This document shows, piece after piece, positions 11,287 through 37,651 of a stretch of DNA of 40,988 bases. Position 1 is the stretch's first letter; each line of letters begins with the position of its first letter. Source of the stretch: a virus. Both the position numbers and the translations under genes were made by a program. The notes below the pieces were generated by a model that searched no databases, was not told where the DNA came from, and saw nothing but the letters and a program-made list of their open reading frames with translations. The stretch lies in UHGV virus genome UHGV-0200626. One strand, 5' to 3'.

Positions 11287-11464
11287 CCCATCCCAATCTC
11301 TTCAATACCAGAAAGAAAGCGTCGAGCGGGCTTTAACGTGCGCTAATTGCGGTCAGAAGCTGCATGTGCTGGAAGTTCACGTGTGTGAGCGTTGTATATA
11401 TGAATGCTTAAATATGGTGGAACATAATGAGAAATATAAGCAACATAGACGAATTAAGAAATAA
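11279..11464 (+). pseudogene. ninF: ninF disrupted by an endonuclease gene insertion
   Basis: First 37 codons match lambda NinF (MLSPSQSLQYQKESVERALTCANCGQKLHVLEVHVCE); the frame then runs into unrelated sequence. The missing NinF C-terminus (CAELMSDPNSSMYEEEDDE) is encoded at 11935..11994 after the inserted gene. Confidence 0.6.
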
Positions 11465-11933
11465 ATTATCATATGATGATGTTTTAGGTGTACTTAGATG
11501 GAAAGTGTCTCCTTCTAATAATGTTAAGGTTGGCAGTGTTGCTGGTTACATTAGAAGTGATGGTTATAGGATGTTAACTATCGATGGTGTAATTACTTAT
11601 GCTCACCACGTTATATGGATGATAAATAATGGTGAGATTCCATTAGGGTATAAAATTGATCATATAAATGGATTAAGGTCAGATAATAGGCTGTCTAATC
11701 TTCGATTGGTTACACACCAACAGAATGCACAGAACCAAAAGAGAAAAATAACCAATTCGTCAGGAGTGACTGGAGTATATTTCAATAAAGAGAGATGTAA
11801 GTGGATTGCGAATATATGCGTAGATGGGCGCACCAAATATCTTGGAATATTTGCTAGCATCATTGACGCTATTGCAGAAAGGAAGAGGACAGAAAAAGAA
11901 CTGGGTTTTCATGAAAACCATGGCAGACCATAA
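11391..11933 (+). mobile_element. Free-standing homing endonuclease gene insertion within ninF
   Basis: About 543 bp lying between the two halves of ninF, almost entirely occupied by an HNH-AP2 ORF. Confidence 0.5.
11427..11933 (+). CDS. HNH endonuclease with AP2 DNA-binding domain
   Basis: 168 aa; HNH core YKIDHINGLRSDNRLSNLRLVTHQQN and AP2-like segment SGVTGVYFNKERCKWIANICVDGRTKYLGIF. Confidence 0.75.
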   Translation: MRNISNIDELRNKLSYDDVLGVLRWKVSPSNNVKVGSVAGYIRSDGYRMLTIDGVITYAHHVIWMINNGEIPLGYKIDHINGLRSDNRLSNLRLVTHQQNAQNQKRKITNSSGVTGVYFNKERCKWIANICVDGRTKYLGIFASIIDAIAERKRTEKELGFHENHGRP

Positions 11934-11986
11934 CTGCGCAGAACTGATGAGCGATCCGAATAGCTCAATGTACGAGGAAGAAGACG

Positions 11987-12199
11987 ATGAGTGATTACCT
12001 GAAATGGTATCTCTGTTACCGCTGGTTAATTAAGTTTGCTGTAAAAGACTGGATGACAGCGGATGCCAACAAACTTAAGCAAAGAAAGGACTATTACTAC
12101 GCCAGAATGAAGGAAAACTACTGCTCAATTCGCACTCGCATATTTATTAAAAAAGACCTTCAGTCAATTCTTCAATTGCGAGGGAAGGTAAATGGCTAA
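11987..12199 (+). CDS. Hypothetical nin-region protein
   Basis: 70 aa ORF whose ATG overlaps the stop of the ninF remnant. Confidence 0.4.
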   Translation: MSDYLKWYLCYRWLIKFAVKDWMTADANKLKQRKDYYYARMKENYCSIRTRIFIKKDLQSILQLRGKVNG

Positions 12200-31225: not shown

Positions 31226-31549
31226 CTATTCTGACATCCTTTTTAATTTATTGTATGACTCTATAGAATCTGTGCACAACTTCATGAACTCTTGAAGTGA
31301 CATTCCTAGGCGAGAAATTTCCGTATTCAAAAAACGTTCAATAAATTCATCTCCGCCGGGCATCTGTGTTGCTTCTTGAAAAGCAAACATTTGTTTAAAT
31401 GTTCCACACATACCAGCAACTTTAGCTGTAACTAACATGTCGTTAGCAAATTTCAGATCCTTATCTTGCGATTGTGCAAGACCACTAATTAGAAAACAGA
31501 ATGCACCTATAACCCATCGCTTCACACCAACCTCCTTAGTTTTGAGCAT
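31226..31549 (-). CDS. Secreted/periplasmic protein of unknown function (predicted signal peptide)
   Basis: 107 aa; N-terminus KRWVIGAFCFLISGLAQSQD looks like a Sec signal peptide; at the P22 sieA-equivalent position. Confidence 0.45.
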   Translation of the reverse strand: MLKTKEVGVKRWVIGAFCFLISGLAQSQDKDLKFANDMLVTAKVAGMCGTFKQMFAFQEATQMPGGDEFIERFLNTEISRLGMSLQEFMKLCTDSIESYNKLKRMSE

Positions 31550-31578: not shown

Positions 31579-31761
31579 TTAGTCACATTCTATTTCTTTT
31601 GTCGAGGTCCATACATAAGGGTCTGAGCAAACAACCTCTCCATTTATCATGACGTCATAGCCCATTAGATATGAGTTACCACCAACAATCTGAGCGGCTA
31701 TGACGCTAATGCTGGCGGCGCAGGCTGCACCAAAAACGAAACCAATTAATATATTTTTCAT
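31579..31761 (-). CDS. Small secreted or membrane peptide (signal peptide, two Cys in the mature part)
   Basis: 60 aa; [24 protein letters not shown] hydrophobic leader, then about 36 residues with two Cys. Confidence 0.4.
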
Positions 31762-31978: not shown

Positions 31979-32162
31979 GGTGGGATGCTAGGTCTCTATC
32001 GTTAAAATCAAGGCTGCTAATCATTTCATTGTAAATGGCGTTTTTATCTTCCATTGGCAGTCTTGAGTAAACCAGACACAGAGCATATTTCAGGGAGTTT
32101 AGCTCTTTCTCTAGCTCTTCCTTGCTTGACGTTGTTGACTTAATAAACTGTTTTTTATTCAT
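31953..32162 (-). CDS. Hypothetical protein downstream of mnt
   Basis: 69 aa; ATGA overlap with mnt. Confidence 0.4.
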   Translation of the reverse strand: MNKKQFIKSTTSSKEELEKELNSLKYALCLVYSRLPMEDKNAIYNEMISSLDFNDRDLASHLNSFRVPE

Positions 32163-32410
32163 TTTGCATCCTTACCATACATGGTCTTTAGCGTCTCAAC
32201 ATCGTGTTCAAGATCTATCAATCGTGATGCTATAGTTGCAAGGTCTAGTGCTTGAATGTGTTTATTTTTTTCGGTCCACGCTTCAAGTGCCGCGACCATC
32301 TCAGCATTTAATGAACGAGAATTAGCCTCAGCCAGTTCAATAAGACGTTCCTTTATCTCTACAGGAAGCCTCAGATTCACTTGAGGGTTTTTGTACTTAC
32401 GATCAGACAT
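32159..32410 (-). CDS. mnt: Mnt-like ribbon-helix-helix repressor
   Basis: 83 aa, same length as P22 Mnt; N-terminal NLRLPVEIKERLIELAEANSRSLNAEMVAAL fits the RHH pattern; divergent from arc-ant. Confidence 0.65.
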   Translation of the reverse strand: MSDRKYKNPQVNLRLPVEIKERLIELAEANSRSLNAEMVAALEAWTEKNKHIQALDLATIASRLIDLEHDVETLKTMYGKDAK

Positions 32411-32514
32411 CGGCGCATCCTGAATAATTATTTACCACAGGATATGTAGGTATCTATTGACTATCAATGCGTACCTAAATACTATGTATGCGTACCACAT
32501 ACAAAGGAGCAAAA
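32411..32514. promoter_or_regulatory. Divergent mnt / arc-ant promoter-operator region
   Basis: 104 bp AT-rich intergenic region containing two direct ATGCGTACC copies. Confidence 0.45.
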
Positions 32515-32661
32515 ATGAAAGTTAAGACATTAAGGATGCCAGAATGGCTAGAAAAGGCTTTGGAGCAGTCCGCGAAAAAGGATGATCGGTCGTTCAGTAA
32601 TGAGGTATTGAGGAGACTAAAGGAGTCAGTAGCTAAGGATGGAATTGTTTGTCCAGAATGA
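32515..32661 (+). CDS. arc: Arc-like ribbon-helix-helix repressor
   Basis: 48 aa ORF absent from the track (below its length cutoff): MKVKTLRMPEWLEKALEQSAKKDDRSFSNEVLRRLKESVAKDGIVCPE; AGGAG upstream; position between mnt and ant. Confidence 0.55.
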   Translation: MKVKTLRMPEWLEKALEQSAKKDDRSFSNEVLRRLKESVAKDGIVCPE

Positions 32662-32727: not shown

Positions 32728-33657
32728 ATGAAAAGTATAGCAACAGCAGTATCTACTATCAACGTGCCATTCCACGGCGCAGAGCTTTATGTCGTCAATC
32801 ACAACGGTGAACCGTACACCCCAATGAAACCTATCGTTGAAGGCATGGGTATGGATTGGGCTTCACAGTTTACGAAAATAAAGCAACGGTTTAAAACCTG
32901 CATTGTGAAAATCACAATGCAGCTTCCTGGCGATGAACAGTGCCGTGAGATTATTTGTTTGGCACTTCGCAAACTTGCTGGCTGGCTGCAAACCATCAGT
33001 CCTAACAAAGTTCGCCCTGAAATCCGCGACAAGGTAATCCAGTATCAGGAAGAGTGTGACGATGTCCTATACGAGTACTGGACTAAAGGCCATGTAGTTA
33101 ACCCACGCAAAGCTAAAAAGGCGTTGCCGGGTAAAATCACCACTGAACAGCAGGAAGCCATTAAACAACTCGTCATGAGTCGCGGTCAGTCTCTGCCAAA
33201 AGAAAAACAGGCGAAGGCGATGATCACCATGTGGTCGTCACTGAAATCCCATTTTGGATGTTCGTACAAAGAAATCAGTGAGGAGCAGTTTACCGAAGCA
33301 CTATCACTTGCAGCTCGAGTTCCACTTGAAGGTGAGTTCATTGGCAAACAAGAGAAGAAAACCAGCGAGCTTTCTGCAAAAGAAGCAAACAGCCTTGTAT
33401 GGTTATGGGATTATGCCAACCGTTCACAGGCATTATTCCGCGAACTGTATCCGGCGCTAAAACAAGTTCAATCGAACTATTCCGGCAGATGCTACGACTA
33501 CGGTCATGAATTCTCGTATGTTATCGGAATGGCGAGAGACGTTTTAATCAATCACACACGAGATGTTGATATCAATGAGCCAGACGGACCAGCGAATCTT
33601 TCCGCATGGATGAGACTTAAGAATAAAGAATTACCTCCTTCAGTACATAACTACTGA
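32728..33657 (+). CDS. ant: Antirepressor (Ant, AntA-type N-terminal domain)
   Basis: 309 aa; N-terminal VPFHGAELYVVNHNGEPYTPMKPIVEGMGMDW fits the antirepressor N-terminal pattern; downstream of arc as in P22 immI. Confidence 0.65.
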   Translation: MKSIATAVSTINVPFHGAELYVVNHNGEPYTPMKPIVEGMGMDWASQFTKIKQRFKTCIVKITMQLPGDEQCREIICLALRKLAGWLQTISPNKVRPEIRDKVIQYQEECDDVLYEYWTKGHVVNPRKAKKALPGKITTEQQEAIKQLVMSRGQSLPKEKQAKAMITMWSSLKSHFGCSYKEISEEQFTEALSLAARVPLEGEFIGKQEKKTSELSAKEANSLVWLWDYANRSQALFRELYPALKQVQSNYSGRCYDYGHEFSYVIGMARDVLINHTRDVDINEPDGPANLSAWMRLKNKELPPSVHNY

Positions 33658-33674
33658 CAGATAACCAACGCGAC

Positions 33675-33700
33675 AACCCAGCTTCGGCTGGGTTTTTTTA
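33675..33700 (+). terminator. Intrinsic terminator after ant
   Basis: CCCAGC-ttcg-GCTGGG followed by TTTTTTTA. Confidence 0.65.
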
Positions 33701-33767
33701 TGCCCAAAATTCACCGTAGCCATGCTGCGGCGATTCCTTGTATCTGGAGCAAATTAAATGACAGACA

Positions 33768-34262
33768 TTATCTAAAACAAGCAAACTCGCCATGATATTT
33801 TTCCCTGAATGCAATAGACATCAATTCGGCCAGCTCAATATCATCGGTATACCCAAGGCAAATAGACTTACCTTTTAGTTTGAACATAACTTTATATGTG
33901 TTTTTCCCTTTAAGAAGATGAACTCCTTTTATACCTGTATTGGATGATGAAACGCTGTTGGTTTTATTCTGACCTCTGGTTACTTCTCTTAGGTTTGAAA
34001 TTCTATTGTCATTTTTAACCCCGTTAATATGGTCAATTAACCCTTTAGGCCAGCATCCTTTCATATAAAACCAAGCAAGTCGGTGGCAAAGATACGATTT
34101 TCCATTAATCCGTATTGATAAGTAGTCGGCCTGTGAGTTCGTCTTAAATCCAGCAACCTTTCCGATACTGGAGCTACCAGAAGCTATCTTCCAAGTGAAG
34201 ACGCCTGTTTCTGGGTTGTAGTTGAGTGAAGAGGTTAATTCTTTATGAGTAATCATATTCAT
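33768..34262 (-). CDS. HNH endonuclease with AP2 domain (second copy)
   Basis: 164 aa; HNH core GLIDHINGVKNDNRISNLREVTRGQN and AP2-like TGIKGVHLLKGKNTYKVMFKLKGKSICLGY; paralogous at protein level to the ORF at 11427..11933. Confidence 0.7.
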   Translation of the reverse strand: MNMITHKELTSSLNYNPETGVFTWKIASGSSSIGKVAGFKTNSQADYLSIRINGKSYLCHRLAWFYMKGCWPKGLIDHINGVKNDNRISNLREVTRGQNKTNSVSSSNTGIKGVHLLKGKNTYKVMFKLKGKSICLGYTDDIELAELMSIAFREKYHGEFACFR

Positions 34263-34282
34263 TCCTTAAATAGAGATTTACT

Positions 34283-36118
34283 ATGTCAAATATTGTGCCA
34301 AATGTTATAATTTCAATGCCAAGTCAACTATTTACGTTAGCCAGAAAATTCCAGGCCGCAAGCAATGGCAAGATATTCATTGGTAAGATAGATTCCGATC
34401 CTACGCTCCCACAGAATCAAGTGCAGGTTTATGTGGAAAACGAAGACGGTTCTCACGTTCCTGTTTCGCAACCAATAATCATTAACGCTGCTGGTTACCC
34501 TGTATATAACGGACAGATTGCCAAATTCGTAACTGAGCAAGGCCATTCTATGGCTGTTTATGATGCGTATGGTGCACAGCAGTTCAAATTCCCAAATGTG
34601 CTGAAGTATGATCCTGACAGACTTGCTCAAAAACTGGAGAGTGAATTTGGAACTAAATATATAGGAGCTCCGTCAGGTGGCGGGACTCTTTATGATATGC
34701 TGTGGTTTGTAACTCCAGCACAATTTGGAGCCCCAGAAGATGGGAGCGATGCATCATCCTCATTACAGGAAATGCTTGATTACGCTACACTAAACGGTAA
34801 GGCAGTATTATTCGATAAAGCGATTACATATAACATAGAAAAGCCGTTAATATATAAGCAAAAAGGATTTCGTAACAGCCGTATTCTTTGCTATGGTGGA
34901 CGAACAGTAATAAATCTAAACTCTTCAACAGCGACTTCCGGATTGCCTAATGATGAAAGCGGAATTGTTATGGATGTTAATGCTGCAATTGTTGTGTCGT
35001 CAACAAACCCGGACACCGCGGTAGTAAACCAACCACAGGCTGTATATATAGAAGGGTTGCAATTCACTTCAACTGCTGGCGGCTCCTACGGAATTTACCT
35101 TGGGAAAACACAGAACACAAATATTAACGATTGTAAGTTTACAGGATTCACTGAAGCTGATATCTGCGATAACGGTTCATGGGTATTCCGAGTTCATGGC
35201 TGCCAAAATTTTAGCGCAGCCAACTACGGTATATGGAAAAAAGCAGGTACATCTGCATGGATTACAGAGTGTTATTTCCAGAACTCTAACTATGCAGTGC
35301 GAATGAAGAGTGGGTACTCTGTTATATCCAAGTGCGCTAATGATTTTACTAAAAATGCCGCATATTGGCTTGAGTCATCGGATTATAACAGTGTATATAC
35401 TATTGATGAGTGTGGTTTTGAGAACTCAGGTTCAGATGCTGTTGTTAAAGTTTCTGGGCGTATTGCACTCACATGGTCTAACTGTATGGCCGGTAACATT
35501 GAATCTCAACAGTCACCTGTTCCTACAAATTTACTCTGGGTTCAGGGCGACAGCAACGGTTCTCAGTTTACACTGAGCAATATTAGATTCCTCAATACTG
35601 GTCGTCGCATATGGGATTTAGGGACTAATAGCCGCTTCACCATTAACCGTGTCAACCATGCCTCAGGTGGCTTAGCGGATGTATGGGGGGATGGCGCGCT
35701 TGTCAATGAAAACACCTATAACACCACCAAGTATATGTCCGCCGCCTACCCCAATGGTTTTCAGATTGGACCAACAGGACTTAGCGACTGGTTCTCATCA
35801 GGCGGAAACACTGGCTCATTACCAAACGACCAAAGATTTTTGAGGTACTCCAAGACGATTACCAGAGCATCTGGTCAGAGTTTTGGAACAACAACAATAA
35901 CGTTACCATTTCAGTTGAGTGTCGATGGTGAGGGGTATCAGGTTATTGTCACTCCGAGAGAGTATCCAAATAACGTCCCTACGTATCAATGGCATTGCGC
36001 AAGTTATAATCATACATCCACTGATGTTCAGATTATAGCTGGTCGTGGTGATGGCAACACAGCATGGTCAACAGTTATTGTTGACATATTAATAATTGGA
36101 AAAGCGATAAACTTTTAA
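34283..36118 (+). CDS. Tailspike: P22 gp9-like N-terminal head-binding domain with a different receptor-binding domain
   Basis: Residues 1 to about 110 match P22 gp9 (GKIFIGKIDSDP...VYVENEDGSHV...VLKYDPD); the remainder is unrelated and rich in N/G/S/T as in beta-helix depolymerases. Confidence 0.8.
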   Translation: MSNIVPNVIISMPSQLFTLARKFQAASNGKIFIGKIDSDPTLPQNQVQVYVENEDGSHVPVSQPIIINAAGYPVYNGQIAKFVTEQGHSMAVYDAYGAQQFKFPNVLKYDPDRLAQKLESEFGTKYIGAPSGGGTLYDMLWFVTPAQFGAPEDGSDASSSLQEMLDYATLNGKAVLFDKAITYNIEKPLIYKQKGFRNSRILCYGGRTVINLNSSTATSGLPNDESGIVMDVNAAIVVSSTNPDTAVVNQPQAVYIEGLQFTSTAGGSYGIYLGKTQNTNINDCKFTGFTEADICDNGSWVFRVHGCQNFSAANYGIWKKAGTSAWITECYFQNSNYAVRMKSGYSVISKCANDFTKNAAYWLESSDYNSVYTIDECGFENSGSDAVVKVSGRIALTWSNCMAGNIESQQSPVPTNLLWVQGDSNGSQFTLSNIRFLNTGRRIWDLGTNSRFTINRVNHASGGLADVWGDGALVNENTYNTTKYMSAAYPNGFQIGPTGLSDWFSSGGNTGSLPNDQRFLRYSKTITRASGQSFGTTTITLPFQLSVDGEGYQVIVTPREYPNNVPTYQWHCASYNHTSTDVQIIAGRGDGNTAWSTVIVDILIIGKAINF

Positions 36119-36257
36119 TTGCTCAAAGGCATGAGGTCTGTCATCCAATCATCAATCTAACGATGGCTTGTTGTGGCTGATGAGATAAAAATGAGACACA
36201 CAACGATTTTGCATTGACTCGCAAAGCTTTGTGCTCTTCGATAGTGGTTAAGGTGGA

Positions 36258-37451
36258 TTACTCCACCTTTTCATCAAGCCAGTCCGCCCACCACTGCATC
36301 ATTTCTCTGCGCTTATCGAGATACTGAGCATGGTTGTAAATCCCGCGCACAGATCCGCCGTTGGCATGTGCCAGTTGCACTTCAATAGCATCAGCAGGCC
36401 ATTCGTGCTCGTTCATAATCGTGCTGAATTCATGCCTGAATCCGTGACCGCTTTCCAGACCCTCATAGCCAATTTGTTTGATCACAAGCAATACCGCGTT
36501 CTCGCAGATTGGCTTCTTCTTATCGTTGCGACCGGCAAAAACAAACTCTGATACTGGTTTAGTGATTGAGCTTAGCGTAGTGAGAAGTTCAACCACCTGG
36601 TCTGACATAGGAACCACATGAATTTTGCGTCCCTTCATCACACTGGCGTCGATGGTGATAATCCTGTTTTCAAAATCGACGTTCTTCCATAGCATGGAAC
36701 GAAGCTCTTTTGTTCTGAGGGCTGTGTAGCGTAAAACTTTGGTCGCAATGAGCGATACGATGCTTCCTGAAAATGTTGCCAGTGCTTTGTTAAATGCCGG
36801 GATCTGGTCTGCAGGAAGAAACGGGAAGTTTTTCTTGCGGTATCCCTTCATGGCGTCAGCAAGGTCAGGTGCCGGGTTATATTTAGCCCTACCAGTGACA
36901 ATAGCGTAACGGAAAACCTCGCCGCATCTTCTGCGGGCTTTGTTGGCTCGCTCCATTGCACCGCGATCTTCAAATCTGCGGATTACTTCCAGCAGTTGCA
37001 TCGGCTCAATATCCTGAATTTCAAGGCCGCCGATGATAGGTAAAATGTCGTCATCAAACATTTTTGCAAGTTCAGTCGCATACCCTACTGACCAGACTTG
37101 CTTCTTGTGCTCGTACCATTCCTTGTAAATCGCACTAAAGGAATTGTTGTTAGACGAAGCCTTTTTCGCCTTTACCGGATCGATGCCAACCGAGATGTCT
37201 TTCCTCGCAGTCCATGCCTTATCCCTTGCCTCCTGCAAAGTCATTAGCGGATATTTTCCTACGGTCAGGATTTTCTCCTTACCGTCAATCTTGTAGCGAA
37301 GCTGCCATACCTTTTTCCCGGATACAGGGACATAAAGGTACAGGCCATTACCATCGAGAAGGCGGTATGGTTTTTCTTTCGGCTTTGCTGCTTCAATCTG
37401 CTTAACAGTGAGCATGAGTAAAAATCCGGTGGGTAAAATTATTTTATCCAC
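36258..37451 (-). CDS. intS: Tyrosine integrase (CPS-53 IntS-like)
   Basis: 397 aa; C-terminal catalytic residues within HGFRHEF and RGIYNHAQY; immediately downstream of the tRNA 3' end. Confidence 0.85.
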   Translation of the reverse strand: MDKIILPTGFLLMLTVKQIEAAKPKEKPYRLLDGNGLYLYVPVSGKKVWQLRYKIDGKEKILTVGKYPLMTLQEARDKAWTARKDISVGIDPVKAKKASSNNNSFSAIYKEWYEHKKQVWSVGYATELAKMFDDDILPIIGGLEIQDIEPMQLLEVIRRFEDRGAMERANKARRRCGEVFRYAIVTGRAKYNPAPDLADAMKGYRKKNFPFLPADQIPAFNKALATFSGSIVSLIATKVLRYTALRTKELRSMLWKNVDFENRIITIDASVMKGRKIHVVPMSDQVVELLTTLSSITKPVSEFVFAGRNDKKKPICENAVLLVIKQIGYEGLESGHGFRHEFSTIMNEHEWPADAIEVQLAHANGGSVRGIYNHAQYLDKRREMMQWWADWLDEKVE

Positions 37452-37576: not shown

Positions 37577-37651
37577 TGGTGTCCCCTGCAGGAATCGAAC
37601 CTGCAATTAGCCCTTAGGAGGGGCTCGTTATATCCATTTAACTAAGAGGAC
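37577..37651 (-). tRNA. argW: tRNA-Arg (anticodon CCU), argW-like
   Basis: Reverse complement reads GTCCTCTTAGTTAAATGGATATAACGAGCCCCTCCTAAGGGCTAATTGCAGGTTCGATTCCTGCAGGGGACACCA (75 nt) with acceptor stem, CCT anticodon in a CTCCTAA loop, GGTTCGATTCC T-arm and CCA end. Confidence 0.95.

Follow-up and report, generated by a model that had tools for sequence, protein, structure and literature searches.

In T4-like phages, different nuclease genes can be found at one and the same locus, as in the SegH/Hef replacement, and in the Aeromonas phage Aeh1 the gene nrdA is split by mobE, an arrangement referred to as “genes in pieces”. Plant AP2/ERF domains have been proposed to derive from the HNH-AP2 endonucleases of phages and cyanobacteria. 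This HNH-AP2 class has been mentioned for T4-related and for Xanthomonas phages (PMC2993671; PMC2248197), homing of the free-standing HNH genes of T4 is accompanied by co-conversion of flanking sequence (PMC2790892; PMC2988022), and the homing endonuclease genes (HEGs) of phages often lie beside or within essential genes, at recombination boundaries (Barth, Dunham and Seed, 2023, PMC10448857).

A gene that can be placed among these systems is found in the virus genome UHGV-0200626, the whole sequence of which, 40,988 nucleotides, is referred to here as the window. The gene at 33768-34262 is interpreted by us, with a probability of roughly 60%, as a free-standing HNH(-AP2) homing endonuclease gene whose fixed site in Escherichia P22-like phages is the very beginning of the tailspike gene. 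It resembles the MobE and Seg genes of T4-like phages, which are likewise stand-alone nuclease genes next to essential genes, are present in some genomes and absent from others, and spread with their flanks (PMC2790892; PMC2988022). However, the T4-like genes sit between genes, whereas the insertion described here lies inside the target ORF, after codon 4-5, and comes with a replacement start and replacement N-terminal codons; moreover, the hosts are temperate P22-like phages and prophages, unlike the T4-like phages, and homing is read from the sequence. With the HEG islands it shares the position of the nuclease at the point where near-identical sequence abruptly gives way to divergent sequence, by or within an essential structural gene, but the conserved block is about 680 bp long, comprising the nuclease gene and 141 nt of its neighbour, instead of several kilobases, and does not include the receptor-binding domain (PMC10448857). 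The uncommon detail is the insertion inside the start of an essential gene together with a replacement start; otherwise, this is a known kind of selfish phage gene. In the literature on P22-like phages, the tailspike, HNH proteins, Kapi1 and ninF, no account of the tailspike-start site was found.

The window is a P22-like (Lederbergvirus-type) prophage integrated at tRNA-Arg(CCT) (37577-37651), with the integrase at 36258-37451. The region under study begins with an Arc/Mnt-like gene on the minus strand (32159-32410), followed on the plus strand by arc (32488-32661) and ant (32728-33657), the latter with P22_AR_N and P22_AR_C domains. An intrinsic terminator 3′ of ant (33675-33701, plus strand), consisting of a stem-loop at 33675-33694 and a T run, belongs to the conserved left flank, which is present in the window, Kapi1, CUS-3 and HNH-less phages. 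The HNH ORF occupies the minus strand between this terminator and the tailspike ATG at 34283, and the two divergent genes are separated by a spacer of 20 nt (34263-34282). The tailspike gene (34283-36118, plus strand) encodes a Head_binding domain in residues 1-113, followed by a beta-helix. Two small minus-strand ORFs with signal-peptide-like N-termini (31226-31549 and 31579-31761) are located between the ejection-protein genes and the immI region; the corresponding Kapi1 genes, Kapi1_059 and Kapi1_060, carry signal-peptide annotations, and the two ORFs are possibly prophage “moron” genes.

The minus-strand ORF of 164 aa that a first-pass annotation of the window had described was found exactly at 33768-34262. 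In other genomes, the same gene is annotated by PGAP from the second ATG (34256 in the window), which results in a protein of 162 aa. This ATG has the better-placed Shine-Dalgarno (SD) sequence, AAGGA, six nt upstream (the complement of 34263-34267), and judging from the sequence it is likely the true start. The Pfam domain HNH_3 (PF13392) was identified in residues 57-99 with 55.5 bits against a cutoff of 24.8 (E = 4e-15), and the entire protein is matched by phrog_99, “HNH endonuclease” (E = 1e-60); none of the four HNH proteins compared is covered by an NCBIfam model. With the Pfam AP2 model (PF00847), no match was obtained at E ≤ 1, and a second HNH gene of the window, located in ninF and discussed below, reached 14.6 bits, under the cutoff of 33.3. 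A profile of 54 family members, however, matched plant AP2/ERF domains at positions 106-158 (WRI1 7wq5, E = 1.6e-8; TEM1 7et4, E = 7e-4), and the AlphaFold model of the protein (pLDDT 94.6) shows C-terminal strands at 114-117, 122-129 and 132-139 and a helix at 142-156, that is, a three-stranded sheet packed on a helix. A Foldseek search with this model returned I-HmuI as the top match with a probability of 1.0, followed by the AP2 domains 1gcc (TM 0.72, rmsd 1.7 Å) and 7et4/7et5, and many homologues from the protein search are annotated with both Pfam AP2 and HNH_3 (precomputed for PF00847). The label “HNH-AP2” is therefore correct, because profile and fold support an AP2 domain although the Pfam model falls short. 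The domain order, HNH followed by AP2, is that of the HNH-AP2 endonucleases of phages and cyanobacteria, from which the protein differs in that its AP2 domain lies below the Pfam cutoff and is apparent only from the profile and the structural model.

The closest solved structure, by sequence and by fold, is I-HmuI of the Bacillus phage SPO1 (PDB 1U3E), which is matched by the profile of 54 members at positions 30-114 with E = 2.5e-7 and by the single protein with E = 8e-4. Both have an N-terminal beta-hairpin DNA-binding region and an HNH_3-type core with the D-H...N residues. D77-H78 and N102 align with D74-H75 and N96 of I-HmuI, which we take to be catalytic and metal-binding residues, and D77, H78, N86, N90 and N102 are invariant across the 54 homologues, so that, as far as sequence and model can indicate, the nuclease looks intact. 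In contrast to I-HmuI, which resides in a group I intron, carries a helix-turn-helix C-terminal domain and nicks one strand, the protein described here is free-standing, antisense to its target gene and equipped with an AP2 C-terminal domain, without an intron. An intron-encoded (group I) homing endonuclease was considered and rejected, since an Rfam search of 33500-34600 returned neither an intron nor any further RNA family at E ≤ 1, the HNH gene runs antisense to the tailspike gene, and the latter is provided with an SD and ATG of its own. The GC content of the HNH gene is 37%, compared with 46.5% for the window. Its nearest relatives, with about 50% identity, are found in unrelated places in unrelated phages, a distribution that a mobile family would be expected to show, and none of those examined adjoins a tailspike; in a search of 5.8 billion proteins, one 90% cluster with 74 members and a fragment were obtained, the next best hits having at most 51% identity.

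The anatomy of the insertion becomes apparent from a comparison of the window with CUS-3, which has no HNH gene, and with Kapi1, which carries another HNH gene, 42% identical, in the same place. Across the ant terminator, the SD GGAG and the 13 nt ATGACAGACATTA, the three sequences do not differ; they diverge thereafter. In CUS-3, the ATG of ATGACAGACATTA is the tailspike start (MTDIT...). In the window, the same stretch remains as a relic of the ancestral tailspike start (33746-33770, plus strand), with the SD at 33746-33749 and ATGACAGACATTA at 33758-33770, corresponding to the first four codons (MTDI) of the P22/CUS-3-type tailspike. Here the relic ATG opens a dead-end ORF of five codons, and the relic's TTA serves as the stop codon of the HNH gene. 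In about 1,100 E. coli genomes, the match to the window ends precisely at 33770. The gene had been placed between ant and the tailspike in the first-pass annotation, which holds in so far as it is flanked by the ant terminator and the ATG at 34283, but not with regard to its origin, as it was inserted after nt 13-15 of the ancestral tailspike ORF.

On the other side of the insertion, the spacer contains a weak SD for the tailspike (AGAGA, 34272-34276), followed by 47 substitute first codons, MSNIVPNVIISMPSQLFTLARKFQAASNGKIFIGKIDSDPTLPQNQV (34283-34423, plus strand), which are linked to the window-type HNH gene in every carrier and are only about 65% identical at the nucleotide level to the HNH-less E. 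coli alleles. Because the insertion brings its own SD and ATG together with replacement N-terminal codons, the tailspike stays intact. The 3′ part of the head-binding domain, codons 48-113 (34424-34621, plus strand), is the common one, shared with about 950 E. coli genomes, and the receptor-binding beta-helix part (34622-36118, plus strand) is 98.8% identical to that of the HNH-less prophage B4103-1. This prophage of E. coli O27:H7 represents an empty site, in which ant is directly followed by the standard tailspike start without an HNH gene. In total, filled sites were found in the window, nine other carriers and the Kapi1 and L108 types, and empty sites in CUS-3, B4103-1 and 93 alleles from IMG/VR. 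The N-terminus closest to the substitute codons is that of Proteus P22-like phages, with 85% amino acid identity over the first 60 residues; these phages have no HNH gene. Neither a donor arrangement nor an intermediate HNH gene was detected in the search of 5.8 billion proteins or among the Proteus N-terminus matches.

IMG/VR was scanned for the tailspike start and then for the junction itself, which yielded 24 junction-bearing contigs with three HNH types only, namely the window type (164 aa), the Kapi1 type (166 aa) and the L108 type (179 aa). In the 5,426 complete E. coli genomes, these types occur 7, 15 and 15 times, respectively, so that 37 of the about 1,100 genomes with a P22-type ant/tailspike junction carry an HNH gene (~3%). 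Identity among the three proteins is 34-42%, and they are not one another's closest relatives; even so, the three genes all terminate at one nucleotide of the relic, with an Arg codon followed by the stop (ATTACC|TA...). In the 93 HNH-less alleles, the SD and the first five codons are conserved to at least 90%. The extent to which the HNH-bearing alleles depart from the HNH-less sequence varies: up to codon 48 in the window type, up to about codon 27 in the Kapi1 type, and only in the start region and codons 1-6 in the L108 type (MTDSINANV vs MTDITANV), which contains a diverged duplicate of the SD/ATG region. All three have altered codons 2-6, precisely at the point where the ancestral sequence is interrupted by the insertion. 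A scan of 185,579 species-representative genomes for the junction resulted in a single hit, a decayed L108-type copy in Escherichia whittamii (L167) with multiple stops and frameshifts and without a recognisable tailspike start after the HNH remnant.

The three alleles may go back either to a single ancient insertion, the flanks of which were later homogenised up to the edge of heterology, or to repeated invasions of one site. The 8-nt junction ATTACCTA, shared by the three alleles, is in favour of the former, while the latter is supported by the fact that they are not monophyletic within the sample and that the copy in ninF likewise ends exactly at its junction; a 3′ tail of zero length may thus be characteristic of the family. 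At the left junction (33771), the window has a T (ATTATCTA), while a window-type contig from IMG/VR (L038) has ATTACCTA like the other alleles. A fourth type of insert was observed at the tailspike-start site in four IMG/VR contigs (L017, L047, L052 and L077), where the relic ATGACAGATATTA is followed by about 280 nt of 27% GC without an HNH gene and then by the tailspike restart MPDITPNVVIGMPSQLF. In frame upstream of MPDITPNVVIGMPSQLF, a stretch resembling a twin-arginine signal, MNRRLFFKTIASLSAVIPFSS, is present. The possibility that this insert is a decayed HNH gene found no support, as neither blastx nor blastn gave a significant similarity.

The window-type gene, found in 7/5,426 complete E. 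coli genomes and in several IMG/VR contigs, belongs to a cassette of about 680 bp, from 33746 to about 34423-34428, that is at least 99% identical in ten carriers, with 2-6 nt differences. Among the same ten carriers, the next 198 nt of the tailspike show 17-34 differences (9-17%), and after about 34620 their tailspikes differ completely, with at least six receptor-binding domains and tailspike lengths. On the right, the cassette ends at the same point in all ten, with no gradation of co-conversion tracts. The upstream neighbours are diverse and include ant variants, a gene-16-like gene without the immI region, a P63C gene and another ORF. In carriers without ant, the upstream sequence is unrelated and the shared stretch begins at the relic SD, which indicates that the relic travels with the HNH gene. 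Eight codon sites of the HNH gene vary among the carriers, five of them with synonymous, two with missense and one with nonsense changes; the last is a GAG to TAG change at codon 143 that shortens the window-type gene of E. coli 1916D6 (L004). The spacer is the same in all carriers except for position 34279, before the tailspike ATG, which is T in the window (GATTTACT) and C in the nine other carriers (GATTCACT). In E. coli ET734 (L137, 3513-4816), an IS1 element cuts the tailspike after about 118 codons, the HNH cassette upstream being intact.

The second HNH_3 and AP2 gene of the window (11427-11933, plus strand, 168 aa) lies in sense orientation within ninF, and the claim that ninF is interrupted by such a copy could be confirmed. 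The N-terminal part of ninF extends from 11279 to about 11385, the insert from 11386 to 11933, and the ninF sequence resumes at 11934, so that the stop codon of the HNH gene directly abuts the junction. The 19 C-terminal codons of ninF (11935-11994) are in a frame that differs from that of the N-terminal part, and nine nt of the intact gene (CTCCGATTG) were replaced at the insertion. The nrdA/mobE arrangement of Aeh1 is a direct parallel for this copy and a partial one for the tailspike copy, because the tailspike, unlike nrdA, is not present in two working pieces; instead, all that remains of the original start is 4-5 codons, and the insertion brings a full replacement for the 5′ end. The ninF insert occurs in 18 of the 5,426 complete E. 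coli genomes, and an uninterrupted ninF in about 1,700. With 7 and 18 carriers, respectively, both HNH genes show presence and absence in E. coli and are optional rather than core genes. In one carrier of the tailspike-site gene, E. coli WP4-S18-ESBL-08 (L132), an HNH gene with a NUMOD4 motif and a cytosine methyltransferase gene are found beside ninF; since a different nuclease gene is present there, the nin region appears to be another recurrent landing place for nucleases.

The two HNH proteins of the window align over 158 residues with 32% identity (E = 3e-20). Both possess all three domains and are homologous over their full length, in agreement with the shared domain order described previously. 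They had also been regarded as paralogues, and this can be maintained in the sense that they belong to a common family over these 158 residues, but not in the sense of a recent duplication, given the 32% identity and the closer relatives elsewhere. Within a set of 120 homologues and the four HNH proteins compared, the mutual ranks of the two copies are only 135th and 121st. Each has relatives of 42-51% identity in unrelated phages, which rules out that the two are mutual closest relatives and argues for two separate acquisitions from one large mobile family.

The possibility had further been raised that the insertion of the HNH gene coincides with an exchange of the receptor-binding domain of the tailspike. 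This was not borne out, as the edge of the cassette (about 34423) and the domain junction (about 34620) are separate. The related HNH-less prophage B4103-1 has the same domain, with 98.8% identity over 34424-36130, and conversely the same cassette is combined with at least six receptor-binding domains. Since the intervening 198 nt vary and the same HNH gene occurs with many domains, the receptor-binding domain is not carried along with it. A receptor-binding part with 98.8% identity to that of the window occurs only once in the 5,426 complete E. coli genomes, namely in O27:H7 B4103-1 (L003), whose prophage sits at the same argW/yfdC site, and none of these genomes combines the window-type HNH cassette with this domain. 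About 950 genomes share only 34424-34620 with the window, and their receptor-binding domains differ after about 34620. To judge from these alignments, recombination around the head-binding domain of the tailspike is clearly frequent with or without an HNH gene. Breaks made by the enzyme may raise recombination nearby.

The homing reading is based on the combination of an optional gene at a precise site, an intact nuclease with sequence-reading domains, a candidate target that is conserved in non-carriers and disrupted in carriers, a nearly invariant element in varied backgrounds, and decayed alleles. Homing would take place in cells that contain both a genome with the HNH gene and one without it, for example after superinfection of a lysogen by a relative of its prophage, or after co-infection. 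The enzyme would recognise the conserved tailspike start of the HNH-less genome through its AP2 and N-terminal DNA-binding modules; this start is a plausible recognition site, as it is conserved in non-carriers and split or altered in carriers. A nick or cut would then be introduced at this start, with the region within or beside GGAGCAAATTAAATGACAGACATTAC(A/C)GC as a candidate, and upon repair by recombination, with the carrier as the template, the damaged genome would acquire the HNH gene along with the substitute 5′ tract linked to it. The carrier's own allele would escape the enzyme, since its site is interrupted by the insertion and changed at codons 2-6. Such a cut-and-repair mechanism is suggested by analogy with the homing of MobE and Seg in T4-like phages, and a double-strand break is not assured, because the closest solved relative, I-HmuI, nicks. 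The carrier frequency of about 3% is lower than would be expected of a strong gene drive, which counts against homing, as do the ungraded right edge of the cassette and the unclear expression signals described below.

Flanks that differ by 9-17% or are unrelated around a cassette of at least 99% identity fit conversion, but ordinary recombination could look the same. P22-like phages are very mosaic, and with conserved flanks ordinary homologous recombination could spread any module among them, with the ant terminator and SD recombining on the left and tailspike codons 48-113 on the right. The gene may then be a passive passenger of a mosaic module that no longer drives, or never drove, its own spread, an explanation that is in line with the frequent recombination near the head-binding domain irrespective of the HNH gene, the fixed right edge of the cassette, the low carrier frequency and the occurrence of one truncated and one decayed allele. 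Nevertheless, we consider it rather unlikely, as most copies have kept an intact ORF and the conserved catalytic residues, with 5/8 variable codon sites being synonymous, and three alleles of one nuclease family are found at the same nucleotide in the start of an essential gene. The change of codons 2-6 in all three alleles is not predicted by chance modular shuffling either, and no other function of the module is apparent.

A different explanation is that the nuclease is expressed by the prophage as an exclusion weapon that cuts the tailspike start of superinfecting HNH-less phages, gene conversion being a by-product, which overlaps mechanistically with the homing reading. The orientation opposite to the late operon, as in many prophage “moron” genes, the low GC content of the gene, weak matches to the PADLOC “HEase” models, and the conservation of the candidate target in at least 90% of the HNH-less relatives would be compatible with such a role. 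However, promoter scans gave no convincing promoter: the sole sigma-70-like match upstream of the HNH gene (34316 to 34289, 9/12) is at chance level (6 sites found vs 3.7 expected), and the scan of the Kapi1 cassette gave no sigma-70-like match. Taken together with the presence of the gene in only about 3% of such prophages and its occurrence in virulent-like and free phage isolates such as Kapi1, this makes an exclusion weapon improbable. Least plausible, and hardly to be expected, is a domesticated AP2-type regulator of tailspike or immI expression, or an accessory packaging nuclease like the terminase-adjacent HNH proteins of cos phages. The predicted AP2 DNA-binding fold and the position next to the tailspike start could point in this direction, but the catalytic HNH residues are kept, and a needed regulator or packaging factor is impossible because the gene is absent from about 97% of similar prophages. 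P22-like phages package by a headful mechanism, and terminase-associated HNH proteins are of a different HNH type; in addition, the gene described here is far from the terminase genes, and no examined phrog_99 relative lies beside a terminase as its partner.

As a homing endonuclease gene, the locus is a clean, well-delimited natural example of a free-standing HEG in temperate enterobacterial phages, and homing is directly testable, because empty and filled sites, three alleles and decayed copies are available in sequenced E. coli and in the isolated phage Kapi1. For annotation, the anatomy of the insertion accounts for two peculiarities of these prophages, the orphan 5-codon start “MTDII” and the atypical tailspike N-terminus. 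The tempting conclusion that the nuclease gene marks a swap of the receptor-binding domain is corrected. A more far-reaching view, which we regard as doubtful, is that the three allelic HNH-AP2 genes form a site-specific system on the tailspike translation start that is expressed from the prophage and excludes or converts HNH-less genomes, its breaks being a major cause of the exceptionally frequent recombination around the junction of the head-binding and receptor-binding parts. If this were true, a selfish nuclease would help to drive the shuffling of host range (O-antigen specificity) in the P22-like group. The locus shows how an essential structural gene can survive a nuclease gene inserted within its start, provided that the insertion comes with a replacement start.
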